Below are positions 769 to 43,747 of a DNA stretch of 64,000 bases, piece by piece. The DNA is taken from the IMG/VR virus record IMGVR_UViG_2061766007_002263; one strand, 5' to 3'. The number at the start of each line of letters is the position of its first letter. Position 1 is the first letter of the stretch. The notes below the pieces were generated by a model. The model was not told the origin of the DNA. It saw nothing but the letters and a program-made list of their open reading frames with translations, and made no database searches. The DNA is from a virus (lineage: Duplodnaviria > Caudoviricetes). The position numbers and the translations under genes were made by a program.

Positions 769-939
769 CTATCCTTTAAAAAACTTGTCAAGGGAAGGCA
801 GTCCGTAAACTTCCAGAAAATACAGTATCCAGAAGCAAACGTCAAAAATGACGCAACCAAAGATTGCCTTGTAAAATCTCTTGTCTTGCTTGAACGTGCC
901 GATAAAGAACAGAATCGGTGCAGCCGTTAAAAGAAGCAT
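769..939 (-). CDS. small membrane protein (56 aa, below ORF-track cutoff)
   Basis: MLLLTAAPILFFIG...DKFFKG*; RBS present; stop lies inside motif 750. Confidence 0.65.
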   Translation of the reverse strand: MLLLTAAPILFFIGTFKQDKRFYKAIFGCVIFDVCFWILYFLEVYGLPSLDKFFKG

Positions 940-959
940 AAAACTACCTTCCCTTTTTC

Positions 960-1142
960 TTAAAAGAACAACTCACGAAGTTTCTTGTTGCAACTGATAA
1001 CAATGATTCCACCAAGCATTGCGATAAGAAAACCCAATGCAAACGGTGAGCCTTCAAAAAACTTGTTAAACGAGTATACATGATTCTCATACTGTCCACA
1101 AGCGAACAACCAATCAAAACCTTTTTCCATAGCTTCCAACAT
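960..1142 (-). CDS. small membrane protein
   Basis: hydrophobic segment; motif 1181 upstream. Confidence 0.7.
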   Translation of the reverse strand: MLEAMEKGFDWLFACGQYENHVYSFNKFFEGSPFALGFLIAMLGGIIVISCNKKLRELFF

Positions 1143-1303
1143 AATTTTTAACCCCCTAATTATCGTTGATGTCTTATTTATTATAATCTTAATTGATACT
1201 TATCCCGACAAAAAAAGGAACAAGCACGGCATAGGAAAGGGGGATTTCCTAATAAAAAAGCCGTGAACTTGCCCCAAAAAATTTTCCGTTGATTAAGGGT
1301 TTT

Positions 1304-1531
1304 TCAGATAGCCGTTTCAAGGCTATGGATTTCTTTTAGCAAATCCGAACAAATGCAACCCATATCCTTTAAGTCGCTTTTTGCAGAGTTCACATTGTCT
1401 GTTGAATAAATGTTCTTGGCAAAATGACTATAAAACTTGTCAAGATGTCCCATCAAGTTTGCAATGTAATTCAAATGGGTACTTGAAGAAGGATTTTCAC
1501 GAATCATTGTCTGAACTGTCTTCATTTTCAT
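1304..1531 (-). CDS. hypothetical protein
   Basis: ATGA overlap with upstream gene. Confidence 0.7.
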   Translation of the reverse strand: MKMKTVQTMIRENPSSSTHLNYIANLMGHLDKFYSHFAKNIYSTDNVNSAKSDLKDMGCICSDLLKEIHSLETAI

Positions 1532-1893
1532 AGTTCTCCGTTGTATGTGAACTTTTTGCCTACATTAAAGCGAAGCATTGAACTAATCCCTCTACGCATA
1601 AGACTTTCATAGTTTTCTGCTTTCTCAATGTATTTCATAGGAATCTTTACAGTAGCAATACCTTTACATTCCCAATCACCATTCGTGTAGCCAACGGAAA
1701 CAAAATAACCACAATCACTTGAAACTTGTTTCATCCCTTTTTTCCAAACTTCAAATTTAAGTGTGTTTCCTTTTCGTGAAAGATACTTGAATTTGTATGA
1801 AGGACTGTGCCAATCCCAAGAATCCCAAATCCAACCTTTATCGCTAAAAGCGACTACGTCTCTATTCCTTGAATTGATTATTCTGATATCCAT
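1528..1893 (-). CDS. hypothetical protein
   Basis: RBS AAGGGGG; motif 1924. Confidence 0.75.
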   Translation of the reverse strand: MDIRIINSRNRDVVAFSDKGWIWDSWDWHSPSYKFKYLSRKGNTLKFEVWKKGMKQVSSDCGYFVSVGYTNGDWECKGIATVKIPMKYIEKAENYESLMRRGISSMLRFNVGKKFTYNGEL

Positions 1894-1931
1894 AGTGTAC
1901 TATCCCCCTTGATACTATGTTTATTATAATC

Positions 1932-2165
1932 TTAGCGATTACTTATCCTGACGGCATCTTCGATTGTCATAATTCTTGCCATATCACGATAATAAGGCAA
2001 CTTTGACAAAGTGAACATAGCACCAAAACGAGTCTTGAACTTTTGTGCATAATTCAAATCAGAAATACATTCAACACCCAGTTTGTCTATTTTCTCCAAG
2101 AACATAGCACGATGAGAGCCATTCTGCATTTTTGTTTTACCTACATAGATAACATACCTTTCCAT
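1932..2165 (-). CDS. hypothetical protein
   Basis: RBS GGAG. Confidence 0.7.
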   Translation of the reverse strand: MERYVIYVGKTKMQNGSHRAMFLEKIDKLGVECISDLNYAQKFKTRFGAMFTLSKLPYYRDMARIMTIEDAVRISNR

Positions 2166-2207
2166 AGTATCTCCGTTATAGATTAAAAAGGGTAATTGCT
2201 CGCTCTA

Positions 2208-2441
2208 TTATAGTTTCTTCATGAGTACACGACCAACGGCAAGTTTAATGTCGTTATCGTTCCAAGTACCATTTTCTTTGAAAGCCGAAGTTTCTGCGAC
2301 ATTTGCAACTACCTCATCAAGAATAGCACGGCGAATGTCATAAACATAATCGTCCGAGATTGCCGACTTCAAGTTTCTTTCCAAGAAGTAGTAAACACCG
2401 TCTTTAAGCCTTTCATAGTCTGTTTTACTGTCGGGCCACAT
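2208..2441 (-). CDS. hypothetical protein
   Basis: RBS AGGAG; motif 2467. Confidence 0.75.
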   Translation of the reverse strand: MWPDSKTDYERLKDGVYYFLERNLKSAISDDYVYDIRRAILDEVVANVAETSAFKENGTWNDNDIKLAVGRVLMKKL

Positions 2442-2504
2442 AGTTTGTTCTCCTATACGATTATTATTATAATGTTATGAGACATTTATCCTTCGAAGTT
2501 TTAA

Positions 2505-2822
2505 AAAAGAAAAGGGGCGAACAACCGTGTGTTTCGCCCCTTGTATTATATTATCTATCTCATTATATATTCTACCTTATAATTAAAGTGCTATGGATAG
2601 TGCATAAACGTTCCTCTTAATCGGTCGGTTACAGAACCCATAATCACTACCAACTATTTCGTCTGCAACCTTAAAAATCAAACGCTGCTGAATTATAACA
2701 AACTATAGTATCATAAGTTGCTATGTCATAAGCCGACCTTCCACCTTTGGTGGTTTTATAAACTTATTTATGATTGACGAGTTGTGAACGCTTTTAGCGT
2801 CTGTTTCACAACATCCTACGCT
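2505..2822 (-). ncRNA. candidate structured non-coding RNA (~300 nt)
   Basis: Lies between motif 2830 and terminator 2512-2542. No convincing ORF. Hairpins at 2781-2812 and 2741-2753; long-range pair 2623-2628/2733-2738. Confidence 0.45.
2512..2542 (-). terminator. intrinsic terminator
   Basis: AAGGGGCGAA...TTCGCCCCTT stem followed by a U-tract on the minus strand. Confidence 0.75.
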
Positions 2823-2862
2823 TTACTTATTATAACCTTTTGGGATGTCTATCCCGCAAAGT

Positions 2863-3039
2863 TTAGAATTCAATTTTCAAGAGTTCTTCACGAATTTTAG
2901 CCAATTCCTTGCCGACAGTTTCGACATAAAAATTGTTTACTTCACCAACCTTTGCTCCGTCCTTCAACGACTTTTCAATAGCGTCTACGGCATTGCCAAT
3001 GTTGCGCTCAAGATACGCTAATGCTCTTGCTTTCATCAT
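2863..3039 (-). CDS. hypothetical protein (58 aa)
   Basis: MMKARALAYLERN...; RBS AAGGAG; motif 3067. Confidence 0.7.
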   Translation of the reverse strand: MMKARALAYLERNIGNAVDAIEKSLKDGAKVGEVNNFYVETVGKELAKIREELLKIEF

Positions 3040-3299
3040 TGTGTATTGCTCCTTATGTCCTATTTATTATAATCTTTGTAGGTATCTATCCTGGAAACTG
3101 CAAACTAATCTTGCCCCTTATATATACATAAATAACGGTTGATAGATTCTGACTTTTTAGGTTGGAGTTAGTTTACATATAATAATAAAAGATTAAAAAA
3201 ACTTGAAAAAAAATTCCAATAAAAAAGGCATAAAAAAAAGGGCAAATGGTCTAGGGGGATAAAATGACCACTTGCCCTCGTGATAATCAAGAAAAAGAT

Positions 3300-3494
3300 T
3301 TACTGTTTTTTAATCCAGTCCACGATGTCATCCGTGGTGTCTTTTACTACTTCACCAGCTTCCTCGGCATGGTCTCCGAAGTTACTGACAAACTCTTTAG
3401 CGTCTTTTTTAAACGCTTTGAAATCAAAGTTGCCGTACTTATAAACGACAAAAATACCTAAAGCCAATAAAGCAATTAAAATCAGTTTCTTCAT
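3300..3494 (-). CDS. small membrane-anchored protein
   Basis: N-terminal hydrophobic helix; motif 3524. Confidence 0.7.
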   Translation of the reverse strand: MKKLILIALLALGIFVVYKYGNFDFKAFKKDAKEFVSNFGDHAEEAGEVVKDTTDDIVDWIKKQ

Positions 3495-3542
3495 GGTATG
3501 TGTTTTCCTTTACACAAATCTTATTATAGCGTTTTTACGCCG

Positions 3543-3770
3543 CTATCCTTTAAGTTCAAGGATTTCTGTTGGTTTATAGTAGAACTGCGAAACATAAGGG
3601 AATGGCTCATCGTAATCATCGTCATCGTCAGAGCAGTACGCTTCTGTCTGTGACTCTTCTGTTCTGCGCTTGCAATACGCTTTTATCTTGTCCTCTGAAC
3701 AAATAGCCGTACCAATAAGCCATGAATGACCGTCTGATTTCTCGTATACCGCCCAAGCAGATTTTTTCAT
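3543..3770 (-). CDS. hypothetical protein
   Basis: start moved to MKKSAW (GGAG RBS); ends Gly-stop in motif 3524. Confidence 0.7.
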   Translation of the reverse strand: MKKSAWAVYEKSDGHSWLIGTAICSEDKIKAYCKRRTEESQTEAYCSDDDDDYDEPFPYVSQFYYKPTEILELKG

Positions 3771-3772
3771 GG

Positions 3773-3898
3773 TTATCTCCAAAGAAGCGTTTCTGGATAC
3801 TGAATTATAACGTCTGCCGTATGCGCAACGGCTTCTTCCATGTCGTATACACCGTTCGCAAGCATCTCTCTAATCACACTGATTTTGTCATAAGACAT
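3773..3898 (-). CDS. hypothetical protein (41 aa)
   Basis: MSYDKISVIREML...; GGGGG RBS; motif 3942. Confidence 0.55.
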   Translation of the reverse strand: MSYDKISVIREMLANGVYDMEEAVAHTADVIIQYPETLLWR

Positions 3899-4096
3899 TT
3901 GATTTCCCCCATTGGTCTGTTTATTTTCGGCAACCATTATTTTATAGTGTTGTGTTTATATTATCCTTTCAAAAAATATGAACTTTCGGCTATAAGGATA
4001 ATTTTAGCATATAAATATAAATATCTATAAAAGTTTTTTAAAGTTATAAAAACTTGTGAAAAAAATAAAAATTACGTCCCAAAAAAATCTTAAAAA

Positions 4097-4984
4097 TTAC
4101 ACGTTTTTCAAACCGCTCAACAAATATTCTATTACTTTTACAGTCCACCCGTTACCTACACCGTAAATACGTTTTGTGTCTGATTTAAGCACTTTCGTAT
4201 AGTTATCCGGCAATGTCTGCAATCGTTCCGCTTCAATTGGATGTATGTATCTGTAAGATGTTCCGCCCAACCAAAAGTTCACTTTATCCCGGCCGTTTGC
4301 CGATACTGTATTGGTTTTTCCCGCAATCCTTGCACGATTCTGCTGAGAATAATATCCCTTTCCGGAGCTGTCCCATTTAACTACACAACCGTCCACCGAA
4401 ATGCGCATTGTATCTTTATATTTCTCAAAAGACTTGACTTTATAATTATTATCATATACAATGTCTTGTATAGTGTCCGTACATGGAGCGGGACGCTTTC
4501 CTAACGGTATGTTAGTCCAGTAGTATCTATGTCTGACCTGAGCTGAGAAATCCGCCGAGTTTATCTCGACAGGTTCATGTCCAAAAGATTTTGTTATCTC
4601 CGCTTTTATCTCGTCCGACATACTTGCGTTGTTCTCGTACAAATAGTATTTTGGTTTAGCTTCCTTTAATGCACGTATATACTGACTGAACAAATCCCAA
4701 CCAATGCCGCTTGAAGTAGTTTCTCTGCCTTTACCACCACGACTGATAGACCATAGGGTACACGGACTGCCCCCGATAAGCAAATCATATTCGCCCTCAT
4801 GGTATTCCGCTTTGAATACATCACCTTTATGCGCTATGTCTTTCCAATTATCTTCCGATACCTTTATCGCGTTCTCATCTATCTCGTATGCATCATACTT
4901 CTCGACTTTAATTCCCAATCTGTCCAGTGCCACACGACCACAGCTTATGCCGTCAAATAATGATAATACCCTTACTTTTTCCAT
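4097..4984 (-). CDS. DNA (cytosine-5)-methyltransferase
   Basis: motif I LSLFDGISCG, catalytic GGSPC, motif VI ENN, motif VIII QVRHRYYW, motif X GNGW. Confidence 0.92.
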   Translation of the reverse strand: MEKVRVLSLFDGISCGRVALDRLGIKVEKYDAYEIDENAIKVSEDNWKDIAHKGDVFKAEYHEGEYDLLIGGSPCTLWSISRGGKGRETTSSGIGWDLFSQYIRALKEAKPKYYLYENNASMSDEIKAEITKSFGHEPVEINSADFSAQVRHRYYWTNIPLGKRPAPCTDTIQDIVYDNNYKVKSFEKYKDTMRISVDGCVVKWDSSGKGYYSQQNRARIAGKTNTVSANGRDKVNFWLGGTSYRYIHPIEAERLQTLPDNYTKVLKSDTKRIYGVGNGWTVKVIEYLLSGLKNV

Positions 4985-5069
4985 TTCAATTATGTCCTTT
5001 AGAATATAGAAACATATTAAAAAAAGCATGAGAAAACATTTCCCATGCTTTTCTGATTAGCTTTCTTTT

Positions 5070-5186
5070 TCAAATGCTTACGTAATCAGCTTTGCAGCCT
5101 TTATGCGTAAAAGCATACTTCTTAGCGTCTGTTTCTGACAGACATACTTTCACGGTTTTTCCAGTGCCGTCAGTTACGACCCACAT
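5070..5186 (-). CDS. hypothetical protein (38 aa)
   Basis: MWVVTDGTGKTVKVC...; GGGGAG RBS; motif 5213. Confidence 0.6.
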   Translation of the reverse strand: MWVVTDGTGKTVKVCLSETDAKKYAFTHKGCKADYVSI

Positions 5187-5317
5187 TTGTTTCTCCCCTG
5201 GGATAAACTGAATTATAATCTTGTGAAAAGTTTATCCCCCTAAGTCTTTCAATCAAAGACTTAAAATAACGTCAAGCGATTTTGTCAGTTATTTAGTGAG
5301 AATATTAAACTACTTTT

Positions 5318-5620
5318 TTAATCAGTGACTCTTAAAAAGAACGCCAACTCTTTGTCTTTAAGGTTTTCACAAGCAAATGCATCCGCTTTTTTCCAAAGTC
5401 TGTCATACAGCCCCGCGAATATCATGTTGCTTTTGCTATAATGTTCCCACAGCTTCAAATTAAGTGTTACAACCAACTCAGTCAAATAGACATAATTTGT
5501 TTTCCACTCATTAAAGGCACGATTGAATGTGTCCTCAATCGCACTTTCGCCGAACTTGTCCGCAATAGTGAAGTCCATAGGAAAGGTCGTTGTCATTTTA
5601 TAGCCGTTTAACAATTCCAT
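5318..5620 (-). CDS. hypothetical phage protein
   Basis: RBS GAGG; motif 5642. Confidence 0.8.
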   Translation of the reverse strand: MELLNGYKMTTTFPMDFTIADKFGESAIEDTFNRAFNEWKTNYVYLTELVVTLNLKLWEHYSKSNMIFAGLYDRLWKKADAFACENLKDKELAFFLRVTD

Positions 5621-5730
5621 AATTTATGTCCTCTTAGGATATTATAATTGTCCTTAGCTCTTATCCTTATAAAGGAATAACCAAACCTACCCCATACTCC
5701 AACAACTAAGGTCAAGCGTTACTACTTATA

Positions 5731-6153
5731 TTAATGTCCTTCGTGAACCAGTACAATGTCAGTACCTCGCCAATCGTACATCTTAAAGCTGTTTAAGACA
5801 TTGTAAAGCATTGTGTCCCTACGGTAAGGATTGCCATTGTAGTCTCTTTTGGACTTTTCCATATCTTCTTCAAGCCACTTGATTACCTTTTTAATGTCGT
5901 CTGTGTAAGTCATACGTTCGCCATAAGGGTCTTTGTAATGCTTATCACGGAATTCGTCATAGCCGTAGCAAGTTCCATGCTCGCCATTACCTACTGAAAA
6001 GAAGTGGAAATCTTCTACCGTCTTATCAAACAGTTTAGGGAAGTCATAGGACATTCCACGAAGTTCGACAGTTATCAACAGTTCGGCATAATGTACTTTT
6101 TCGTTTGGAAACTTGTTGATACTTACCAGGTGTACGGTATTGTCATAACCCAT
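5731..6153 (-). CDS. hypothetical protein
   Basis: ORF, RBS, motif 6233. Confidence 0.78.
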   Translation of the reverse strand: MGYDNTVHLVSINKFPNEKVHYAELLITVELRGMSYDFPKLFDKTVEDFHFFSVGNGEHGTCYGYDEFRDKHYKDPYGERMTYTDDIKKVIKWLEEDMEKSKRDYNGNPYRRDTMLYNVLNSFKMYDWRGTDIVLVHEGH

Positions 6154-6276
6154 AATAGTTGCCTCGCTTTGCGATTAGTAGGTTGATTGGTATAACGGAC
6201 TCGAAACTCGATTACCTTTACTTTTTTAATTATTATAACCTTGTTCAAGTGTTATCTTGAGCAAGGCTCAAAGTTT

Positions 6277-6504
6277 TTAATTCATTGTCGATTCGATTTT
6301 GAATCCCAATGATTCCAGTTCTTTTTTGTCAAACTTGAAAAGCTTTATACCGTCATTGCTTACGTAGAATTCAAAAAGCCGTTTATCGCCTGTCCAAATG
6401 TCTGTCATAGTAAACGTTTCTTCTCGTCCGTCTGGATGATAGAATGTATTTCCCGCAGTGTTGGTTTCGTATACTACACCGTCTACCTTTTTATGATATC
6501 CCAT
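6277..6504 (-). CDS. hypothetical protein
   Basis: ORF with RBS. Confidence 0.7.
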   Translation of the reverse strand: MGYHKKVDGVVYETNTAGNTFYHPDGREETFTMTDIWTGDKRLFEFYVSNDGIKLFKFDKKELESLGFKIESTMN

Positions 6505-6517
6505 TTTGCATTTCCCC

Positions 6518-6703
6518 TTAGTCGTTCAGTTCGTCCAATACGTCATATAAGTACGGCAAAAGATTCTGTATCACTTCTTCTTTTGTTGAACCTGTTACAC
6601 TTATACCACTTGAGGTGTCGTCACCAAAATAGACCGTGTAACCCATCTCACCGTCTTCTTCCCACTTGGTAAAAGAAATGTTCATGTCTTTAACATTTTC
6701 CAT
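6518..6703 (-). CDS. hypothetical protein
   Basis: ORF, motif 6728. Confidence 0.7.
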   Translation of the reverse strand: MENVKDMNISFTKWEEDGEMGYTVYFGDDTSSGISVTGSTKEEVIQNLLPYLYDVLDELND

Positions 6704-6843
6704 TTAATTTCCCTCACAATAATTTTATTATACTATTGATAATTAGTTATCTTTTTTAATACTGTTACGTTCATTGTTTAAGTTTCTTACGCATATAAAA
6801 TTATAACCTTGTTCAAGTGTTATCCTGAACAAGGCTCAATTTT

Positions 6844-7095
6844 TCACCAACAATGACCTACATTGAACTCGTCAAGGTCGTTTTCCAAAAAGCCCAAGTC
6901 AACATCGTCTGCCTTAATGTGTGTTGCACGGATAAGGAATGAATTGTTGCTTGAATGGTACATTATGTCCAGTTCGCCTGTCAGTTCATTACGAACAACG
7001 TCTACATTGTCTGAACTGTATTCATTCAGTTCTTCTTTAACCATAGAAAAAATCTGATAGGCTTTTCTTCCCTTGTCGGGGTATGCCTTGCTCAT
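6844..7095 (-). CDS. hypothetical protein
   Basis: RBS GAGGAG; motif 7123. Confidence 0.75.
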   Translation of the reverse strand: MSKAYPDKGRKAYQIFSMVKEELNEYSSDNVDVVRNELTGELDIMYHSSNNSFLIRATHIKADDVDLGFLENDLDEFNVGHCW

Positions 7096-7161
7096 AGTTG
7101 TTATCTCCTCACACTATCCGGATTATAACTGTACGGGAATCTTATCCCGTATAATCAAATC

Positions 7162-7554
7162 TTATTTCACAAGTTTTGCAACAAGTTCTTTAAGCTCCCT
7201 TACTTCATTCAGAAGCTCGTTCTGCTTGATTGTTTCAACATCCCATTTAATGCGAACAGACGCGAAATAAGATGAAGCGTTTGGCGAGTTTGGATTTGCC
7301 TTTCCAACATAGCAAATTCCCTTGTCAGGAAAGAACGAATGAATACCAATGTCACGACTACCATACTTTGAAAAGCCAACCTTGCGAATAGCGGCAATGA
7401 TTGATTCCTCACAGATTTCCTTTCCTTGCAACTCCCTGCGCAAATCGTCTACATTGGTATAATTGTTGCTTAATGCGGACATGGAATTGGATTCGATTGA
7501 TGTCCAACCGAATACATTTACCGATTTATTTGTAGTTGTCTTTTTTGTAGCCAT
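7162..7554 (-). CDS. hypothetical protein
   Basis: RBS; motif 7583. Confidence 0.78.
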   Translation of the reverse strand: MATKKTTTNKSVNVFGWTSIESNSMSALSNNYTNVDDLRRELQGKEICEESIIAAIRKVGFSKYGSRDIGIHSFFPDKGICYVGKANPNSPNASSYFASVRIKWDVETIKQNELLNEVRELKELVAKLVK

Positions 7555-7649
7555 AGTTTAGTTCCCCCTTATGCTTTAATTATTATAATCATAACAAACA
7601 CTTATCCCGTGAAAATAATAAAGGCAGAACCGTAGTTCTGCCGTTTATT

Positions 7650-8417
7650 TTAGTTCGATTCAATCAATTTCCAACCAAGACGCTTTTGGATTTCGTCTGT
7701 CTTAGAAACCATAATTTTGTCTACTTCTTCGTAGATTTCAAGCATCTTGTCGATTTCTTCAACTGTTGGTTTTTCGTGGTTGAAAGTTGAAAGCCAACTG
7801 TCGTCCAAAGTCTTTTCGCCATTGCTACCAACCATACCGAACAAAGCGATACCGAAATCGCCATACATACTAAAGTAGTCCGCAATCTTTCGTACTTTAA
7901 GAATGATGTCGTCGTGGTCGTCATGCCAAGTTCGTTCTACTTCATAGAAAACACTCAACAAGTCGTGAAACCAAAGGTCTGCAAGTTTACCTTCTTCATT
8001 GTAGTAAGGTGTACTGCTTGAACCCCAAAGAGGTCTAGCCGCCAAAGACCCAAAATTAGAATATTCACGGCTCATAAAAAAGTATGAACCATAGCTATAA
8101 CTTGCACGAATAATTTCTCGTGGGTCGTTCTTTTTAAGCCAAGCCTTCAAAGATACGGTCTTTACATAACCGTACTTGTCTTTTGGCAGACTGTCCTTTT
8201 CATTCAAGAACTTGTTAATCAAGTCAAGAAGGTATGTCGCCCAACCGTATTGTTCTCGGTACTTGTAATACTTGTCGATAAAGGCAATCTTTTCTTCTTG
8301 AGTAAAGGTTTTCTCCCAAGCGAAAATGTATGGGCGATTGGATTTTCTCCCAACTATTGTCTGCGGGTGATTCTTTACTTCATTATAAAGAACCAAATCT
8401 TCTACTTTGTAATCCAT
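7650..8417 (-). CDS. hypothetical protein
   Basis: 255-aa ORF; motif 8440. Confidence 0.82.
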   Translation of the reverse strand: MDYKVEDLVLYNEVKNHPQTIVGRKSNRPYIFAWEKTFTQEEKIAFIDKYYKYREQYGWATYLLDLINKFLNEKDSLPKDKYGYVKTVSLKAWLKKNDPREIIRASYSYGSYFFMSREYSNFGSLAARPLWGSSSTPYYNEEGKLADLWFHDLLSVFYEVERTWHDDHDDIILKVRKIADYFSMYGDFGIALFGMVGSNGEKTLDDSWLSTFNHEKPTVEEIDKMLEIYEEVDKIMVSKTDEIQKRLGWKLIESN

Positions 8418-8451
8418 AGGAATCCCCTTTTCAATTATATTATAACCTTAG

Positions 8452-8685
8452 CTACTTCTTATCCCGCAGCTCAGATTCCTTGAACTTACTGTCCCTAACA
8501 TAACGACCCAGTTTGTTATTCCAAATGTAGATATACATTTTATGCATACTACCTACAAACTTTCTGTAAAAGTCTGTGTAAAACTTTTTACATTCTTTGT
8601 AGGTATTGTACTCGTCAATAGCAAATAATGTACCTTTCCAATCATACAAAGAAACTGTATATTTCGGAATGGTGTATCCCTTCAT
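8452..8685 (-). CDS. hypothetical protein
   Basis: RBS; motif 8708. Confidence 0.7.
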   Translation of the reverse strand: MKGYTIPKYTVSLYDWKGTLFAIDEYNTYKECKKFYTDFYRKFVGSMHKMYIYIWNNKLGRYVRDSKFKESELRDKK

Positions 8686-8794
8686 AGAAATCCTCTTTCC
8701 GATTAGATTATAACCTTGTAGATTTGTTATCCTGGTATAAATTAAAAAGGGTCGGCATTTAATACCAACCCTTTCCGTTATTTAAGCATAGAGT

Positions 8795-9223
8795 TTAATC
8801 TCCCCAACCTTGATTCGGGTCATCCCAACAAGGTTCTGCGTTCTCATAGGCACACTCGTATTCAACGATTTTCAACGGATATTTCATTGTTTCCGCTCTG
8901 TTGTAGTTGCCTTTTTCATACTGGCTTATGTCCTTGTTTACTGGCGTGTAATACAAGCCAATCGCATTACTACGGCTTTCTTGCTTGTCTTTTCCCTCGA
9001 CACCGTTCCACTTTGCAAGAGCTTCATAAGCGTCTACTTCTTTTCCGTTATCGTCATAGAAGCATCCATAGCCGTCATAATTATCGTCTACTTTGTAGCA
9101 GCCACCGCCGAACTCTTTTGGAATAAGCAGAAATGCTTTTTTAGTACGAGTATTCGTTTCTGGTATGTCATAGCAAATCAATTCTCGTCTTGTATCAGAG
9201 CAAATCCAACTGAACTGTCCCAT
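8795..9223 (-). CDS. hypothetical phage protein
   Basis: RBS AAGGAG; motif 9253. Confidence 0.8.
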   Translation of the reverse strand: MGQFSWICSDTRRELICYDIPETNTRTKKAFLLIPKEFGGGCYKVDDNYDGYGCFYDDNGKEVDAYEALAKWNGVEGKDKQESRSNAIGLYYTPVNKDISQYEKGNYNRAETMKYPLKIVEYECAYENAEPCWDDPNQGWGD

Positions 9224-9287
9224 CGTTTCTAATCTCCTTTATGCAAACAAGATTATACTCATGCGGATAGTCTATCCTTTAAGATTG

Positions 9288-9515: not shown

Positions 9516-9609
9516 CCCCTTTTTAGTAATGTTTACTATTTAGTTTGAGATAGCGTATCCTTAGAAAAAGAACCTTGTGGAAATCTATTCTCGCAAGGTT
9601 CTTTATCGG

Positions 9610-34955: not shown

Positions 34956-34969
34956 AGCGATTCTTCCTT

Positions 34970-35221: not shown

Positions 35222-35296
35222 TGTCGTTAATCTCCTTATGTTTTTGTAATTATAGCCTTGCATTAGGCTTATCCTGACACAAGGCTATTTTTCAGA

Positions 35297-35593: not shown

Positions 35594-35657
35594 TGTTTCT
35601 TTTCTCCCTACGATATTTTTATTATAGTCCTATTAAGTTTGTATCCTTTAAAAACTC

Positions 35658-35963
35658 TCAACAATAAAAGTCAAACGCTCCGATACCACCATGTTCGTCT
35701 ATGATTGTATTGATTTTCTGGTCAAAGGTCATGTCTTTTTTCCGGTCCTTGTCGCTCTTAAACACATTGTAGCCAAAATCCTCAATTGTGGCGCATACCA
35801 GATAGCTTATGTTACTAATGTCCGTTTCTATCGGCTCTGGACGCTTTAAAACGGCATATGCAATCCAGTCCATGTCGCACCATTCTGATTTCGGCATATT
35901 TTCGTATTCCTCAACAGAATTAAGAGGTGTCCACTGTCCATAAGCGTTTACTGTCATTGACAT
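35658..35963 (-). CDS. hypothetical protein
   Basis: RBS AGGAG; motif 36033. Confidence 0.75.
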   Translation of the reverse strand: MSMTVNAYGQWTPLNSVEEYENMPKSEWCDMDWIAYAVLKRPEPIETDISNISYLVCATIEDFGYNVFKSDKDRKKDMTFDQKINTIIDEHGGIGAFDFYC

Positions 35964-36073
35964 GGTTTTAATCTCCTATCGCTATTTAAGCTTATCTTTT
36001 AATTTCTGCATATTTTCATTACTTTTAAAAAATTATAGTCTTACAAGGTGTCTATCCTTGCAAGACTTAATCT

Positions 36074-36688
36074 TTACTCCGCCGCAACCCCAATCACATA
36101 GTATTTGTGAATCTCACGGACAACCGTTCCGTTCTTTACGGATTTGGGCATAGATTTTACATTTTTGGAAACAATACTGAACTCTGCCTTTTCTTCCGAA
36201 CCAGATACAAGAACTTTTGACTTTTCCCACCAAGCGAATCCATTATTTTCAAGAACATAGTTTTTCGCTTTTTTGTCCGCAAGCTCTTGTGTCTTTTCAG
36301 TACTTAATGTTTTCGTATGTCCGTTATTGTCTTCCGTGTAGACAGAAAACATTGTCTGATAGACTGGCTTATTGTTACTAGAACGCTTTGTTTTTTTCAC
36401 AGACCAGACTTCATAGCCGACAATACCCAAGTCCATCGCTTCGCAAGACCATTTCGCCACATTATTACATACGTTGTCAATCATTTCGGCATACTTTTTC
36501 TGTCTCATGAAGTTTTTCAGATTTGTTTCAGTACACTTGTCAAAGACTTTATGTATCTTTTTCAAGTTTGAGCAAGTGTTCCAATCACCACTGTAAATAT
36601 CGTTACTGTCAGACCATGAATCAATTTCATTTGAGTTTAAAAAGCCTTTTGGCAGTTTAACCATTTTAGTAATAATACGAGCACCCAT
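36074..36688 (-). CDS. hypothetical protein, paralogue of 14453..15067
   Basis: see paralogue; motif 36718. Confidence 0.85.
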   Translation of the reverse strand: MGARIITKMVKLPKGFLNSNEIDSWSDSNDIYSGDWNTCSNLKKIHKVFDKCTETNLKNFMRQKKYAEMIDNVCNNVAKWSCEAMDLGIVGYEVWSVKKTKRSSNNKPVYQTMFSVYTEDNNGHTKTLSTEKTQELADKKAKNYVLENNGFAWWEKSKVLVSGSEEKAEFSIVSKNVKSMPKSVKNGTVVREIHKYYVIGVAAE

Positions 36689-36931
36689 AGTACTTTATCT
36701 CCTTATGTCCTCATGGATTATATAGTTATTAAGCTTTTATCCTCGAAACGCTTGCAAACTTACCACGACAATTATCTTTTAGTGAAACGTTGTACGCTCC
36801 GTTAAACCCTAAGTTGTAGACTTCACCGTAGTTATTGTTGGTATAATCTTGCAAAGACTTTATTCCCCAAGAAAAAAAACTCCGTCAAACCTTGTAGAAA
36901 GTCTGACGGTTTATGTGTAGCAAAAAAATCC

Positions 36932-37204
36932 TTACCAACGATAGATTTCTTTCAAAGGTCCTTTACGCTTCTTTGTCTGTCCGAAATGCGTTACATGATA
37001 ATAGCCACACTCTTTACAGTAGTATTTCCTTTTAGGCTTGTCATTGCCCCTTCCGATATGCGAGGAAGTCCGATGTCCTTTCAATCTTGCGAGCTGTTCA
37101 CCTGCTTCACGCTCCGTAAGGCACTGTTTTCCACATACGCAATACCGTACCTTAGACTGACCGAAATCTCCAATAAAATCTTTCATAGTCCTATACTTTG
37201 CCAA
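36932..37204 (-). CDS. basic zinc-finger protein
   Basis: CVCGK...YYCKECGYYHVT. Confidence 0.7.
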   Translation of the reverse strand: MAKYRTMKDFIGDFGQSKVRYCVCGKQCLTEREAGEQLARLKGHRTSSHIGRGNDKPKRKYYCKECGYYHVTHFGQTKKRKGPLKEIYRW

Positions 37205-37318
37205 GATAACCGATTGTTACTATGACCACCTGAATCTATCTCAGCTTGCAAAATAAAGGCAGTCAAGCCTACTTAAAAAAACTTTGTGAACCACCGAAAA
37301 AAATCGGTGGAATTATCA

Positions 37319-37948
37319 CTATTTTTTGTTAGGAATTTCAGAATCCCAAGCCAACTGACGCTCGAAATCTTCCTTGTTGCGTTCAAGCCGTCTTGCTTTT
37401 TCAGTTTGGATTTCCCAACCCTTTTCTTTAGAAAAGAAAGCGTGTCCGAGTTCTATGCCGTTAGAACCACCACCCCACATTTTAAGTGAATAGTAGATGT
37501 CGATTGAAAATCCGATTTCCGCGTCTTTTGAAGTATCAATGTCCTCGTATTCCCAACCACCATAGTACTTTTGTTTTGCGCCTTTCTTACCAGAGAAACG
37601 AATCCAAGTATAACCGTAGTTAAAGTTTCCGACAGTGATTTCCTCAAATGCCGCGTTAAGATAAAGGCTTTCTTTGTTAAGATTCTGGCTTTCATAGCTT
37701 ATGCCCAAACCATTTCTGCCGTGAACGACTTTGAAATCAAAGTTACAATTAAACCCAAAAGTCTTGTTGATAAGGTCGAAAAGACCTCTCATGATTCCGC
37801 TTGAATAATCCGCAATTTTTGCGAACAACTCTTCTTCACGGTGGATTTGTCCGTTATACCAGTCAACAAATGAATCCGTCCATTCTTTACCGTTCTTTTT
37901 AAGAAGGCCAGCATAAATAGAGCCGCTTTTTTCGATTCTTAATGTCAT
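37319..37948 (-). CDS. hypothetical protein, paralogue of 32733..33302
   Basis: motif 37978. Confidence 0.82.
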   Translation of the reverse strand: MTLRIEKSGSIYAGLLKKNGKEWTDSFVDWYNGQIHREEELFAKIADYSSGIMRGLFDLINKTFGFNCNFDFKVVHGRNGLGISYESQNLNKESLYLNAAFEEITVGNFNYGYTWIRFSGKKGAKQKYYGGWEYEDIDTSKDAEIGFSIDIYYSLKMWGGGSNGIELGHAFFSKEKGWEIQTEKARRLERNKEDFERQLAWDSEIPNKK

Positions 37949-38033
37949 TGTATCATAATCTCCTTACGGTTTACTTATTATAGTCTTACTTCAAGGCTAT
38001 CCTTAAAAGCCATAGCCTTGAAGTTTTCAAGGA

Positions 38034-38471
38034 TTATTCCTCAAATGGAATTCCATTATCAGAACAGTATTCCTGAATCGTTTTCAACGGAACACGGATA
38101 AGTTCCGACTGCCGCTCATTTATGTCAACGAGCCTTTGATACAAGCTGCTCTTGTCAGTAGCTAAAGGCTGGTCAACATAACTGCGCTCAACAATCTTCC
38201 AGCCCTTAATGTAATAAGTTCCGTTATCGTCTCCGTTTGCAAGGTTCGAATAAACGTCTACCCCAAGCGAAAGACCATCTCCGAAAAAATTCCCTATGAC
38301 AGTCGTAAGATATGCCCAACCATAGTCGTCACCCGTAGGCTCACGGAAACCTTTCATTTCACAATACGCAAGGAACGCTTCGATACTCTCAACACCACCG
38401 TTCCAGTGAACATAAATGCCGACACCTTTTTCCCTTTCAATCGCACTTGCGATAATAGCCCGGTTTCCCAT
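38034..38471 (-). CDS. conserved phage protein (GIYxHWNGG type)
   Basis: MGNRA...GIYVHWNGG; RBS. Confidence 0.8.
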   Translation of the reverse strand: MGNRAIIASAIEREKGVGIYVHWNGGVESIEAFLAYCEMKGFREPTGDDYGWAYLTTVIGNFFGDGLSLGVDVYSNLANGDDNGTYYIKGWKIVERSYVDQPLATDKSSLYQRLVDINERQSELIRVPLKTIQEYCSDNGIPFEE

Positions 38472-38488
38472 AAAATTGCTCCTTTTTA

Positions 38489-38767
38489 TTAAGAAGGTAT
38501 CTTAATACCTTCCAGATAACCTTTATTTTCCCATTCATTCGGAATGTCGTACTCTTCAAGTTCTTTTGCTTCAAGCACACGGTCAAGATAAACAACCGTC
38601 AATGTGTTGGACAACAATACGGAACGTATGACCCCGACATCTTTAGGAAGCGTCATGGGTCCCAGTCCATGTTTCAGTACATACTGGAATCCTTTTCCGG
38701 CTTTCTTGCCGTAAGAAATACGGTCTGGGTCACCATTACCTTTCCTATCTACAAGCACAAATGCCAT
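38489..38767 (-). CDS. hypothetical protein
   Basis: RBS GAGG. Confidence 0.72.
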   Translation of the reverse strand: MAFVLVDRKGNGDPDRISYGKKAGKGFQYVLKHGLGPMTLPKDVGVIRSVLLSNTLTVVYLDRVLEAKELEEYDIPNEWENKGYLEGIKIPS

Positions 38768-38783
38768 TTTCTCGTTTCCTCTT

Positions 38784-39059
38784 TTAGCTTATACGGCAGA
38801 ACTGAATCTCGCCCTCGAACAATGCGCTGTCGAAAAGTGCCTGTGATTCTTCAGAAGTGTATTCGTTGCAGAAGTCTTCGAACTCTTTTTCTCCCACCAA
38901 ATCAAAAAACTTTGTTGCATAATCATAGCTTGTGGCGAAGACTACCTCGTAGGATTCCTCGTCATTCTCGACCACGAAAATAAACTGCGCAAGTTTATGG
39001 CAGACTGGTATTTCCTTATAGTCCCAAGTATTGACAAGCTCCTTATAGCTTTTTTCCAT
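38784..39059 (-). CDS. acidic hypothetical protein
   Basis: RBS; motif 39088. Confidence 0.75.
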   Translation of the reverse strand: MEKSYKELVNTWDYKEIPVCHKLAQFIFVVENDEESYEVVFATSYDYATKFFDLVGEKEFEDFCNEYTSEESQALFDSALFEGEIQFCRIS

Positions 39060-39153
39060 AGTTGTTTATCTCCTTACATTCTACAGATTATTCTCTTGTC
39101 TAGCGTCTATCCTTCAAAAATAAGGTGGCTGTTTGAGCCACCTTTATAATTAT

Positions 39154-40116
39154 TTAATTGTAGTAATCAAAAGTTTCACCACAAAGCTGAAGCGCGGTGG
39201 ACACATGGCTTTCAGTAATCCCGTTGCTCTCATGCATATCCGCGATTGTTCTCGCAACTTTTATGATTCCACGTTTTACAAGAGCGGAAATACCTTTTAT
39301 TTCACAATAGCTTTCGAGCATGGTTGTTTCGCTCTTTCCCATAGGACAATAGGTTGACACCTCATCCGGCGTAAGGTCAGCGTTCAGTTTGCCCTGCCGC
39401 TTATACTGGAACTCCTGTCCTTTTTTAATCAGCTCACGCAGCTCTTCCAGTGTCCGTTCAGGCTCAAATGTCGTATGCGTCTCATAGAGCATTACACGTA
39501 TCTCCATACGGTCAAGAAGCGGTCCGCTGAACTTCTTCCAATACTGTTCTATTGAACGTGCTGAGCAAATACAAATACGGTCAGAGCCATAATTTCCACA
39601 TGGGCAAGGACTTGTAACCATAGCCAATTGAAAATCGGCTGGATACACATAACATTTACCCGCACGGCTCAACGTAACTGATTTTGTTTCCAGAGGAACA
39701 CGAAGCATTTGAAGAACAGACGTTCTGAATTCCGCCACTTCGTCAAGAAAAAGCATACCTTTATGCGCAAGGCTTATCTCACCCGGTTTGCAGTCGATGC
39801 CACCGCCGCACATACCTTCCAGAGAAGCAGTTTGATGCGGCATACGGAAAGGACGTGGTGTTTTCAAGTCGTCAGGACGTGGTATCCCCGCTACTTCGTA
39901 GATTTTATTGACTTCTTTCATCTCGTCTGCCGTAAGTTCCGGCATGAGCATAGGAAACATCGTAAACATCGCGGTCTTACCACAGCCAGGACTTCCTACG
40001 GCTATAATGTTGTGCCGACCACATACGGCTACAGCCATAGCATACTTCAGAAAATCAATGTTTTTTCCCTTAAAGGAATCAAACTTCTTATCATCAGCTT
40101 TCTCGAACTCAACCAT
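39154..40116 (-). CDS. ComM/YifB-like AAA+ ATPase lacking the N-terminal domain
   Basis: Walker A GSPGCGKT, RPFRMPHQTAS, PGEISLAHKGMLFLDE, PCPCG, SGPLLDR, KVARTIAD. Confidence 0.9.
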   Translation of the reverse strand: MVEFEKADDKKFDSFKGKNIDFLKYAMAVAVCGRHNIIAVGSPGCGKTAMFTMFPMLMPELTADEMKEVNKIYEVAGIPRPDDLKTPRPFRMPHQTASLEGMCGGGIDCKPGEISLAHKGMLFLDEVAEFRTSVLQMLRVPLETKSVTLSRAGKCYVYPADFQLAMVTSPCPCGNYGSDRICICSARSIEQYWKKFSGPLLDRMEIRVMLYETHTTFEPERTLEELRELIKKGQEFQYKRQGKLNADLTPDEVSTYCPMGKSETTMLESYCEIKGISALVKRGIIKVARTIADMHESNGITESHVSTALQLCGETFDYYN

Positions 40117-40221
40117 AGTTTTTATCTCCCTATGTGTTTGATTATTATACTCTTGTAAATGTTCTATCCTTTAAGTAATTAAAAAAGTCGGCGGCTTGAA
40201 AAACCACCGACTTGCTTAGTT

Positions 40222-40851
40222 TCAATCGTATAATTCGCTCATCTTGTATAAAGATTCAACCGAATTATTTGGGTCAAGAATCTTGCGTATCTTGGCAAGG
40301 TCTTTTTCTGGAATAGCACGGTACAACCATGAATGTCCGTATTGGTATGGCTTTCCGTTCACTTCGACCTCATACATTCCGTATGTTTTCAGAACTATGC
40401 AGTCAAGCGTATAGCCATGTATATCTCGTAAGCAATTTTCAATCCATTTCTTATAGTAATTGTCAGAATATCCGTACTCAATCCGCGCTTTTTCCCAAAG
40501 TGCTTTGGCATATTCATTGGCGATTGTTTCTCTTTCGTCCTCATGCTCTTTAAGGCACTTTTCCTGTTCCGGAGTACCTGCGTTCATGTCGTTAAGGTGG
40601 TACTTCTCCCACAAATCCTCAATCAAGTTATACAACTTATTATGCTTAAAATATGGCTTGACAGTATCCAAACACTGTCCGCCAGCATGGATATCAGTAT
40701 GTTTGGAATTCCAAACTTTACCAGATACAGTAAAAGCTGGTTTATCAGTGTCCGCGTTTTTCAGCGCAACCTCCAGATTCACGACATTAATCTTACGCCC
40801 TGTTTTATGGTAATCAATTTTTCCAAAATCAAGTGTTCTATACAAATCCAT
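40222..40851 (-). CDS. hypothetical phage protein
   Basis: GGQCLD, WEKYHLNDM; motif 40875. Confidence 0.82.
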   Translation of the reverse strand: MDLYRTLDFGKIDYHKTGRKINVVNLEVALKNADTDKPAFTVSGKVWNSKHTDIHAGGQCLDTVKPYFKHNKLYNLIEDLWEKYHLNDMNAGTPEQEKCLKEHEDERETIANEYAKALWEKARIEYGYSDNYYKKWIENCLRDIHGYTLDCIVLKTYGMYEVEVNGKPYQYGHSWLYRAIPEKDLAKIRKILDPNNSVESLYKMSELYD

Positions 40852-40918
40852 AATTAAAACCTCTTTTACAAGAATTATAATCTTGCGAGTAATTTATCCT
40901 GTAACAGTTTGTTTTTAG

Positions 40919-42311
40919 GAGACTTTCACGTTCTAAACCTTTGGGGCTTTAGCCTCTAAGATACAGAACGTGTAATATATTTTAGGAACTTTACTATAAT
41001 TTTCCTAAAAGAAAATATTCCTTTTTCCACTAATTAGAGTATGAGTAAGAACGAAAATATCCAAAAAGGATTATTAGAATTAAAAGCAAGAAGAAAGACT
41101 CAGCAAATCAAAGTCTATGAATTGAAGATAAATGTACATTCAACCTCAAAGGAGGATTTTGCAAAATTCAATTCTATGTTCGTTCAAGCAAAATGGGTTG
41201 CAAATGATTGTATTGCTTCTGAGGATATTTTCACTTACAAATATCAAGAACATAAAAAGGTTATCAATTTTGACAAAGATGGAAACAAAGTAGAAAGAAC
41301 AATCAATTTGAATTCCGGTATACACCAAGACATTATTCGTCAAATTAAACAGGACATTGTGAACCTTTCAAAGAAGAAAAAGAAAGGTGGAAAAGTAGGA
41401 AGGCTAAAATTCAAAAGACAAGTAAATACTATCAATTTGAGAGATTTGAAAGTATTGAATTCGAAAACAGTTTCAATCCCAGGCTTCAAAAACTTAAAAG
41501 TGTACGGACTTGAACAATTCATCAGTATTCCTGAATTTGAAATTGCAAGTCCAAAATTGGTAAAAAAAGCTTCAGGAATATACCTAAAAGTTCCTGTATG
41601 TATTCCAAAAGAAACTTCCAAAAGAAAATCCACAAACAAAGAGGTTGGGTTGGATTTTGGAATCAAGGATAACATAACTACATCTGATGGAGAGAAATTC
41701 AACTGTAGTGTGCAAGAATCTGAGTATCTAAAATTTCTACAACGTAAGTTGCACAAGAAACAAAAGAACTCAAAGCGATACCATAAATGTTTGAATCAAC
41801 TCCAAAAAGAGTATGAACATCTCACTAACAAAAAGAATGACGATTCTAACAAATTAATTTCCTACCTTTTGAAGAGCTATGATGTCATCTATTTTCAGGA
41901 CGAGCAAATTTCAAAATGGAGAAAGTTCAACAAAGGATTTGCTAGAAACATCCAACATTCCTATTTGGGAAGAGTGAAAGCAAAGCTTGTGGAGTTACAA
42001 AAGACAAGTAGAAGTTTTGAAATTTCAAAATGGTCTCCCTCTACAAAATTCTGTCCTCAATGTGGTTCTCTAAATGATGGAATCACACTTTCAGACAGAA
42101 TTTTCAAATGTTCATGTGGATATCAATTTGATAGAGATGTTCATGCAGCAAAAAACGTAAAATTGTTTGGCTCAACTAAAAGGGCTGAGTGGTTGGAACA
42201 ACCCCCCGTGGACTCATTGGTCACTACTGCACTAGAATTTTCTGGGACAGCAAATCAAGAGGTTGAAGCGAAAAACGAAGCTGTAGTGTCTTCAGACATT
42301 CGGTAGTTCAC
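40919..42311 (+). mobile_element. IS200/IS605-family tnpB-only element; left boundary approximate
   Basis: left nested hairpin CACGTTCT...GGGGCTTTAGCCTC...AGAACGTG; right end GAAGC...GTGTCTTCAGACAT..GTAGTTCAC. Confidence 0.78.
41041..42306 (+). CDS. tnpB: TnpB RNA-guided nuclease family protein
   Basis: GLDFGIK, CPQCG/CSCG, DRDVHAAKN; RuvC-II YFQDE; closely related to 21992..23266. Confidence 0.92.
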   Translation: MSKNENIQKGLLELKARRKTQQIKVYELKINVHSTSKEDFAKFNSMFVQAKWVANDCIASEDIFTYKYQEHKKVINFDKDGNKVERTINLNSGIHQDIIRQIKQDIVNLSKKKKKGGKVGRLKFKRQVNTINLRDLKVLNSKTVSIPGFKNLKVYGLEQFISIPEFEIASPKLVKKASGIYLKVPVCIPKETSKRKSTNKEVGLDFGIKDNITTSDGEKFNCSVQESEYLKFLQRKLHKKQKNSKRYHKCLNQLQKEYEHLTNKKNDDSNKLISYLLKSYDVIYFQDEQISKWRKFNKGFARNIQHSYLGRVKAKLVELQKTSRSFEISKWSPSTKFCPQCGSLNDGITLSDRIFKCSCGYQFDRDVHAAKNVKLFGSTKRAEWLEQPPVDSLVTTALEFSGTANQEVEAKNEAVVSSDIR

Positions 42312-42841
42312 CGTCCGTAAACCTTTTTAGCATAATGCAGATTCACACTGTATCCTTTGCTCAAAAGCTTCTCGTGCAAAGTCTGTGGGTCGTCATATTT
42401 ATGATTGTTATAATACGCTTCGCCACGTTTCGTGAGTTTTTTCACCTCGAAACAGTTTACTCCGTCATGATGATACGAATGTATGTTGAATACGCCTTTG
42501 TCGTCAAATATTTTAGTCTTATAGCAAAAACAGACGTTAAGACCATTAAAGCCTTTGAATACCCGACCCCCATAATGCCTTCCGTCCCAGTTTCCTATAA
42601 AACCAGTAATAATATACGTGCTGCCGTCATCAAAGAAATTCTTAAGCAGAGACGATTCCGAATCCCAAGATGTTTCATTGGAAATACGAATTTCCTCTTG
42701 AATTTCCTCGTCAGTCGGTTCCCAATCGGTTTCCTCTGGATATTCTTCAAGATGTCGCTCGATACAATACTTCTCCGCGTCATCCCAATCATAACCGTCA
42801 TGGTCATTATAAATTATTGTTTCCGTTTTTTTCTTTCCCAT
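42308..42841 (-). CDS. hypothetical phage protein
   Basis: GNWDGR, HHDG; stop codon supplied by the IS right end. Confidence 0.8.
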   Translation of the reverse strand: MGKKKTETIIYNDHDGYDWDDAEKYCIERHLEEYPEETDWEPTDEEIQEEIRISNETSWDSESSLLKNFFDDGSTYIITGFIGNWDGRHYGGRVFKGFNGLNVCFCYKTKIFDDKGVFNIHSYHHDGVNCFEVKKLTKRGEAYYNNHKYDDPQTLHEKLLSKGYSVNLHYAKKVYGR

Positions 42842-42942
42842 AGAAATTCCTTTTGAATGTATCTTAAGTATTATAACCTTTCAAATCGTTTATCCTTAGA
42901 AAAACAAAAAGGGCGGAATCAACCGCCCCTTTTCAAGTATTG

Positions 42943-43416
42943 TTAAAACTCCTCTGGATTTATAAATTCAATTTCTGTCGTACCAGACTTTACCTTACCG
43001 AAAAGGTCACCAAAATAGAAAATACCAATTTCACCCGGCTCTATTTCTACTTTAGTACCTTTTTCATTGGAGCAGACGTCTCCCACTGTCGCAAAAATCG
43101 GCTCGTCAGAAGCATTCTTAACATAAAGGTAATCACTGAACCAATTTCCAAAATAGTCTTCCATAAAATTAAGATTCTTTTTTGGAAACAAATCTATAGG
43201 TTCCGAATCGTCAAAATACTGAAAGTTTTCTTTATCAAACTCTCTTACTTCTTTTTTCAAATCGTCAGCCGTTTCGATTCTGGCAAGACGCTCCACAACT
43301 TCCTGACCATAACCTATTACGTCATTACCAACTCTGACGTACATATCACCGTTGAACTCATTAGAAGTTAGAATCTTCCGTTCTTTAGTAACTAATACAA
43401 ACTTACCTCTTGTCAT
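42943..43416 (-). CDS. hypothetical protein
   Basis: RBS; motif 43444. Confidence 0.8.
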   Translation of the reverse strand: MTRGKFVLVTKERKILTSNEFNGDMYVRVGNDVIGYGQEVVERLARIETADDLKKEVREFDKENFQYFDDSEPIDLFPKKNLNFMEDYFGNWFSDYLYVKNASDEPIFATVGDVCSNEKGTKVEIEPGEIGIFYFGDLFGKVKSGTTEIEFINPEEF

Positions 43417-43462
43417 AGCATTAATCTCCTTTCGCTTTTTCTATTATAATGTTGAAGTGGTT

Positions 43463-43747
43463 CTATCCTTCCAAAGAATCTTGCACTTCCAATTCAACCC
43501 GCGCAAACGGAAGATTCGTTTTCAAATCCCAGAACTCATAATAATCTGGAAATGCGGAACAATCTACGTCAATGTCTCCAAGAAGTTCTTTTTTAAGGAA
43601 TCCTTTGTCAGCGCAAGCGTTCAGAATGTCGTTAGCAGAAGCGTCCTCACTTACTTCTATAGGATTGCCGGTAAACTTGCCGACATTGTTCACTTCAAAA
43701 TCATCCTCATTTCCCCAAACGTCATAGACACAAAAAATGTATTTCAC
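43463..43747 (-). CDS. hypothetical protein
   Basis: GTG start, AAGGAG RBS; motif 43773; Gly-stop inside motif 43444. Confidence 0.75.
   Translation of the reverse strand: MKYIFCVYDVWGNEDDFEVNNVGKFTGNPIEVSEDASANDILNACADKGFLKKELLGDIDVDCSAFPDYYEFWDLKTNLPFARVELEVQDSLEG

Follow-up and report, generated by a model that had tools for sequence, protein, structure and literature searches.

Stop codons within a repeated promoter-like box of a phage early region and their likely origin in tight gene packing

Promoter-early stem-loops (PeSLs) are composite promoter-terminator cassettes of the T4-type phages RB49/phi1, T4/PST and KVP40/nt-1, in which stem-loops adjoin or overlie the -35 and -10 boxes and the upstream gene stops in an AT-rich stretch 5' of the -35 box (Arbiol et al. 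2010, PMC2839356; Comeau et al. 2014, PMC4122927); variants termed 'PmSL' are mentioned for nt-1 (PMC4122927). Here, we describe a repeated promoter-like module in a 64,000-nucleotide (nt) stretch of DNA from a virus of the Caudoviricetes (Duplodnaviria; IMG/VR record IMGVR_UViG_2061766007_002263), referred to below as the window. The upstream box of this module, GGATAR, also encodes the last residue and the stop codon of eight genes. PeSLs appear to be the closest known system. As in PeSLs, many copies of what looks like one early promoter lie on one strand before small, mostly ORFan genes (most of the array proteins tested had no Pfam or PHROG match), the unit spans the stop of the upstream gene to the next ATG, and duplicated copies flank gene modules. 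Stem-loops lie 5' of or over the promoter boxes, as they do in PeSLs, at 30 and 12 junctions, but not at the eight where the stop falls on the box. The two systems differ in spacing, with GGATAR 14 nt from a perfect TATAAT here compared to a sigma-70 -35 box at 17 nt in PeSLs, and in the position of the stop, which lies inside the box in 8 of 68 copies in the window, all of them without a stem-loop. Indels and replacements between related phages are bounded by cassettes in the PeSL systems; within the window, two duplications that end at the -10 hexamer are the internal hint of such shuffling. The window's capsid gene has a weak match to the Gp23 family of Pfam (24.2 bits vs. a cut-off of 24.4), and its best capsid matches in phage collections are 20-24% identical.

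Other described arrangements share part of this anatomy. T4 middle promoters combine a MotA box centred near -30 with a host-type -10 hexamer and have no -35 hexamer. The module in the window resembles them in its non-canonical box around -30, its fixed short spacing to a perfect -10 and its lack of a -35 hexamer; the box sequence is different, and the likeness concerns the promoter, not the stop codon. In the gene-end overlaps of compact phages (ATGA/TAATG, or stops in a Shine-Dalgarno (SD) sequence or -10 hexamer), the stop is likewise common with a signal of the next gene and the short tail is not conserved, but in the window one invariant promoter position repeatedly gives the stop and unrelated proteins share the same Gly-stop. 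The first-pass annotation of this DNA had likened the motif to the attC sites of integrons, proposing that incoming or truncated genes joined at the motif gain an instant stop codon. The likeness is that in both cases a repeated element at gene 3' ends is able to hold a stop codon. However, integron cassettes are promoterless, whereas each unit here has its own predicted promoter, an SD and often a terminator; attC is an imperfect palindrome, whereas no general palindrome is present here; and duplication joints in the window fall at the -10 hexamer. No integrase was found in Pfam scans of about 20 window proteins, although no search aimed at integrases was made. The integron analogy is not supported: the motif has the features of a promoter box at a fixed distance from a -10 hexamer, an SD and an ATG, and 12% of its copies serve as stops.

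GGATAR occurs 103 times in the window compared to 52 times in shuffled sequence, nearly always on the minus strand between positions 769 and 43797. Alignment of the copies revealed a module consisting of a T-rich/MA flank, the GGATAR box, a 14-nt spacer whose last five bases are AAGRY, a TATAAT hexamer, about 8 variable nt, the leader (C/T)ATAAGGAG, and ATG. In 59 of 60 strict copies, exactly 14 nt separate GGATAR from TATAAT, and the ATAAGGAG leader is present at most genes of the array. In a position-weight-matrix (PWM) scan, the minus strand carried 68 copies of the module and the plus strand carried 2. GGATAR-N14-TATAAT-like sites number 59-68 and 1-2 on these strands, respectively; the two plus-strand copies, at 43974 and 44874, lie where transcription diverges. 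Nearly every small gene of the early region is preceded by a copy. TTGACA-N17-TATAAT promoters, in comparison, are at the level of shuffled sequence in the window, without enrichment. We infer that a phage early promoter is repeated here, with GGATAR as its upstream box (-30 region) and a short leader after it, in which case the box would lie at about -33 to -28 relative to the transcription start. At three genes the ATG comes 9-10 nt past TATAAT without an SD (27292-27309 and 30435-30452, minus strand; 43994-44012, plus strand), and the mRNAs of these genes are probably leaderless.

Eight minus-strand genes, named here by their lower coordinate, end in GGA-TAR on the box, and in each case the hexamer lies exactly 14 nt 5' of TATAAT (Table 1). 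All eight had been named in the first-pass annotation, which also correctly recorded that the stop of gene 12713 overlaps the motif and that genes 1932, 8452 and 9916 read through it in other frames. Genes 1932 and 8452 translate through the box in its other two frames. The -10 hexamer can also furnish a stop codon, as seen for the TAA of TATAAT at 9916-9918 (minus strand) and the TAG of TATAGT at 44896-44898 (plus strand). The last three codons of the eight genes match the upstream consensus of the promoter, NMA-GGA-TAR, with GAA, AAA, AAA, CAA, GCA, GCA, AAA and AAA as the codons before GGA. Promoter scores of the stop-on-box copies average 29.0 bits compared to 29.6 in the remaining copies, and the upstream flank, which is coding in these copies, scores 3.5 compared to 4.0. 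Because the scores hold even in the flank, the last sense codons of these genes appear to be dictated by the promoter consensus.

Table 1. Promoter array, genes that end on or near a promoter box, and classes of promoter junction by distance from stop to box (aa, amino acids; ORF, open reading frame; MFE, minimum free energy)
Feature	Extent or number	Strand	Basis or detail
Promoter array, 68 co-oriented modules	749..43797	minus	PWM scan and alignment of copies
Gene 769..939, 56 aa, small hydrophobic, ends KFFKG-stop	749..939	minus	AAA-GGA-TAG on box 769-774; -10 at 749-754
Gene 3543..3770, 75 aa, ends LELKG-stop	3523..3770	minus	AAA-GGA-TAG on box 3543-3548
Gene 18084..18578, 164 aa, ends ESYAG-stop	18064..18578	minus	GCA-GGA-TAA on box 18084-18089
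Gene 19129..19599, 156 aa, ends TNHAG-stop	19109..19599	minus	GCA-GGA-TAA on box 19129-19134
Gene 21400..21741, 113 aa, ends NHNQG-stop	21380..21741	minus	CAA-GGA-TAA on box 21400-21405
Gene 26611..27294, 227 aa, ends NTIKG-stop	26591..27294	minus	AAA-GGA-TAG on box 26611-26616
ComM/YifB-like ATPase gene 29520..30437, 305 aa, ends IFPKG-stop	29500..30437	minus	AAA-GGA-TAA on box 29520-29525
Gene 43463..43747, 94 aa, ends DSLEG-stop	43443..43747	minus	GAA-GGA-TAG on box 43463-43468
Gene 12713..12937, 74 aa	12688..12937	minus	TAG-GATAA: stop overlaps first G of box 12708-12713
Gene 9916..10203	9915..10203	minus	Passes box 9935-9940, stops on TAA inside TATAAT
ORF 44473..44898	44473..44899	plus	Passes box 44874-44879, stops on TAG of -10-like TATAGT 44894-44899
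Stop >25 nt 5' of box (mostly 42-107), separate hairpin	30 junctions		Mean MFE -14.1 (60 nt upstream)
Stop 17-25 nt 5' of box, hairpin wraps box, T-run past -10	12 junctions		Mean MFE -16.8 (around box)
Stop 2-16 nt 5' of box	6 junctions		Mean MFE -10.9 and -8.9
Stop on box	8 junctions		Mean MFE -7.5 and -4.9, without hairpin
Read-through of box, two ORFs doubtful	5 junctions		Mean MFE -10.3 and -6.0

Homologues of these proteins, where they exist, do not share the terminal Gly outside relatives that are at least 85% identical; the same Gly in homologues, which the first-pass annotation had named as a refutation, is thus not seen. Four homologues of 21400 (53-61% identity) align with it up to RKW-E-R and end in RIKK or NKTI, 2-4 residues earlier and without Gly. 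The 29520 protein carries a complete Mg_chelatase_C domain (Pfam), and the distance from its conserved GKLP motif to its end is 12 residues compared to 3-9 in eleven homologues and the in-window paralogue 39154, leaving 29520 with a tail 3-9 residues longer. For 12713, PHROG matches reach residue 71-72 of 74, and the proteins of five close variants, ending in EVRK, are two residues shorter. Relatives of 18084 and 19129 at 85% identity or more end in AG or TG, except for P0036, which ends in TV, with Val in place of Gly; the homologue search for the 18084 family returned full-length relatives at 85% identity or more and otherwise fragments. A relative of 3543, P0023, has the same ending as the window protein. 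The 43463 and 3543 proteins were looked up within clusters of at least 90% identity, and 769 is absent from the protein collection.

In natural variants, too, the stop has moved. P0002, a close relative of 43463 that is encoded on four contigs, carries a Gln where the TAG would be and continues for 14 further residues; these residues are the translated promoter, with TATAAT intact, and end at a TAA just past the SD. The stop position also differs among the close relatives P0024 and P0025-29. Since homologues lack the Gly and natural variants shift the stop, the sequence comparison indicates that the terminal Gly and the stop are encoded by the motif and not by the protein, and that the tails are non-conserved and promoter-encoded. 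The earlier proposal that the motif supplies the stop is thus upheld by the consensus, the homologues and P0002, while the accompanying view of integron-like joining of incoming or truncated genes is not. Testable window proteins are complete or 2-8 residues longer than their homologues, as for 29520, 21400 and 12713, rather than truncated.

This interpretation explains the Lys-, Ala-, Gln- or Glu-Gly endings that are common to unrelated early proteins of this phage, and which would be meaningless for the proteins themselves. It also calls for caution in annotation, given that C-terminal tails here appear to be promoter-encoded and that some N-termini may be translated promoter. For example, a 316-residue reading of the ComM-like gene, present in public collections as P0003, starts inside a degenerate box, GGATGG (30438-30470, minus strand), and its first 11 residues are translated promoter, compared to the 305-residue form (P0004), which starts 9 nt after the -10 hexamer. 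A single base change in the box would be predicted to weaken the promoter and lengthen the upstream protein together. Genes 769..939 and 960..1142 (769-1142, minus strand) encode adjacent small hydrophobic proteins, and an internal NKFFEG of the latter resembles the promoter-dictated end DKFFKG of the former, with a common 12-nt stretch, ACAAGTTTTTT-AAGG; this likeness may be a promoter-flank relic inside a gene, or chance.

An upstream ORF could be assigned at 61 promoter junctions, which we classed by the distance from stop to box (Table 1). Terminator-like hairpins are about three times as frequent in the window as expected from shuffled sequence. A general hairpin around the box was considered and rejected by a pairing control, in which pairing around the box was not above the shuffle control across 59 strict copies; stems at the box are found in about 10 copies alone, and their register varies. 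In two cases, at 14417-14446 and 36037-36067 (minus strand), a terminator hairpin encloses GGATAR and a T-run follows TATAAT. These hairpin copies come after the paralogues 14453 and 36074, and their stem is kept through compensatory changes in the arms.

Stop-on-box is the commonest single stop position, accounting for 8 of the 61 junctions, and the next commonest position accounts for 3; at the same time, 60 of the 68 boxes are never used as stops. All of these counts are drawn from one 44-kb array. Of 11 genes overlapping the box, 8 are in the TAR frame (p = 0.009). Because the paralogous genes 18084 and 19129 share both ending and promoter, the eight endings represent seven independent events; with this pair collapsed, 7 of 10 overlapping genes are in the TAR frame (p = 0.02). 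The frame bias raised in the first-pass annotation is therefore present, but it softens to p = 0.03-0.07 when two doubtful ORFs are added. An absorbing model that distributes stops evenly and catches frame-0 ORFs at the box predicts 2.1 such endings, compared to the 8 observed (p = 0.002; p = 0.006 with 7 observed endings). Of the 15 genes in frame with the box, 8 end on it, and among the genes that stop before reaching it just 7 of 48 are in its frame, a deficit with p = 0.003 in a post hoc test. The enrichment at the box stop is real but modest, with p ranging from about 0.002 to 0.07 by choice of null.

We think it probable that the stops result from tight gene packing: at terminator-less junctions the gene abuts the promoter, and the invariant TAR acts as a backstop. 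The TAR of the box would be held invariant through selection on the promoter. Junctions come in three designs: the promoter may be preceded by a separate hairpin, the hairpin may enclose the box, or a terminator may be lacking, and in the last of these the upstream frame abuts or enters the promoter. A gene arriving in frame 0 would end at the box at once, adding a harmless NMA-Gly; one in frame 1 would be translated until it met the TAA within TATAAT or, by chance, a stop before it; and one in frame 2 would continue to whichever stop comes. Frames other than 0 would require 3-7 more codons to be translated into the promoter. If the spacer between genes were deleted, or if a gene lost or shifted its own stop, mainly frame-0 outcomes might then survive and produce the excess of Gly-stop endings. 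In duplication or recombination, the box and its stop would stay with the upstream unit, with the joint at or after the -10 hexamer. Survival of frame-0 outcomes fits the excess of stops on the box, the dearth of earlier frame-0 stops, the natural variants, and the tails, which are non-conserved and slightly longer. The supply of stop codons is most likely a consequence of packing, and not a new system, in a PeSL-like array of cassettes whose promoter is of a new type. If so, the array offers a non-sigma-70 example for the PeSL picture of how accessory genes are organised and reshuffled in large phages.

Several observations weigh against packing as the explanation. Box-reaching extended variants were not found in the clusters of at least 90% identity for seven frame-0 or read-through control genes. 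No terminator relics were found in the tails of the eight genes, which makes it unlikely that a gene simply lost its stop and was translated through a former terminator; one has to assume either that sequence was deleted or that these junctions arose terminator-less. The frame statistics are modest, comprise seven independent events and include one post hoc test. Promoter function is itself predicted from sequence, and protein-level comparison with close relatives, the level at which all of our comparisons with them were made, does not separate deletion, stop-sliding and recombination as the route.

The main alternative interpretation, which we regard as possible if doubtful, is that the module is a cassette joint with a built-in stop, a form of PeSL in which promoter copies recombine and fragments caught between two copies are expressed at once. 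The upstream copy might then give the start context and the downstream box the stop, an idea that we hold only tentatively. The protein encoded by 26611 is the one case that matches this scenario. It corresponds to a single unnamed domain (about 220 residues) of large polyvalent proteins, here standing alone, for which there are 789 representative matches, many of them 3000-7000 aa long and carrying LPD and PBECR5 domains (LPD14/25/38 and PBECR5 among the domain partners). Homology, at 50-63% identity, spans residues 4-6 to 223-226 of 227; past its end, 26611 stops within 1-4 residues (IKG), while the homologues run on for 34 to thousands of residues. The ATG of 26611 lies 9 nt past the upstream -10 hexamer without an SD, and its stop is in the next box. 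No Pfam, PHROG or PDB match was found for this protein. It looks like an undescribed polyvalent-protein domain present as a stand-alone early phage gene, and by its boundaries it fits, as one case, the capture of a fragment. However, polyvalent-protein domains often stand as separate genes, and the remaining testable genes are complete or longer.

Duplications within the array bear on the cassette joint in both directions. Nine paralogue pairs with 30-60% identity lie among the early genes (window positions 1-44000), among them a pair of ComM-like ATPases and a pair of 204-aa proteins, the latter from a family widespread in related contigs. A 40-nt promoter-hairpin is duplicated at 6252 and 6820 (38 of 40 positions identical) and flanks a two-gene module; PeSLs provide a precedent for promoter-mediated shuffling (PMC2839356, PMC4122927). 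In these copies (6215-6260 and 6785-6830, minus strand), one box reads AGATAA, and identity extends from just past the upstream stop to TATAAT; between the promoters at 6820 and 6747 just a 13-codon mini-ORF is left. The proteins of 18084 and 19129 are 56% identical, and their promoters are identical at 28 of 29 nt (97%) from GCA-GGATAA to TATAAT, with identity ceasing at the -10 hexamer. Both readable duplication boundaries thus lie at the -10 hexamer, and identity starts at or before the box. The identity passes the box and ends after TATAAT, which assigns both box and stop to the unit of the upstream gene; the box is thus not an acceptor site met by an incoming gene but travels together with the gene on its 5' side. 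The 60 boxes that are not stops likewise speak against a cassette joint, and with comparison at the protein level an insertion event would not be visible. It is unlikely, too, that the array is a working gene-capture system that recombines at the -10/start region, with built-in stops provided in frame 0 by the invariant TAR and in frame 1 by the -10 hexamer (the TAA within TATAAT). If it were, foreign gene fragments such as 26611 would become instantly expressible mini-genes.

We consider it quite unlikely that the stops are a coincidence, that is, that 68 promoter copies are packed onto genes and a third of the overlaps reach TAR by frame. The number of independent events is small, the frame test gives p = 0.035-0.066 with the doubtful ORFs included, and stops also fall in the -10 hexamer and elsewhere, all as coincidence would have it. 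Yet stops on the box are 3-4 times as frequent as the absorbing model predicts (p = 0.002-0.006), positions 1-16 nt 5' of the box hold 6 stops in total, and genes that stop upstream shun the box frame.

Regulatory coupling, in which ribosomes ending on the box, or the missing terminator, would tune the downstream promoter or couple the two genes and the arrangement would itself be under selection, is very improbable. The eight junctions have no terminator, so upstream transcripts would enter the next gene, and relatives as distant as 85% identity still have the arrangement. However, no feature sets the eight promoters or their downstream genes apart from the rest, natural variants without the stop or without the Gly exist, and a ribosome acts on RNA while a promoter acts on DNA, leaving no obvious direct mechanism. 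Stop-codon recoding or a suppressor tRNA was rejected, as the window contains no tRNA and the standard code leaves its long late ORFs open.

No close relative of the window was found in GTDB genomes, IMG/VR or GenBank phages: megablast of 14 kb against GenBank phages gave no match, and tblastn against phages with the capsid, ComM-like and 204-aa proteins gave remote matches or none. Scans of IMG/VR proteins with the 29520, 26611 and 21400 families found no relatives. The promoter pattern gave single chance matches in IMG/VR and, among the matches listed for metagenome contigs, at least 120 single-match loci, none of them related to the window. The 204-aa family was found at one distant locus each in genome contigs (L133, 32% identity) and IMG/VR (L134, 48% identity), neither with a GGATAR promoter. 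Proteins at least 90% identical to some of the early proteins occur on contigs of up to 539-560 kb. The window also contains two TnpB genes (OrfB_IS605 plus a Cas12f1-like TNB domain), at 21992-23266 and 41041-42306 on the plus strand, both oriented against the early array.

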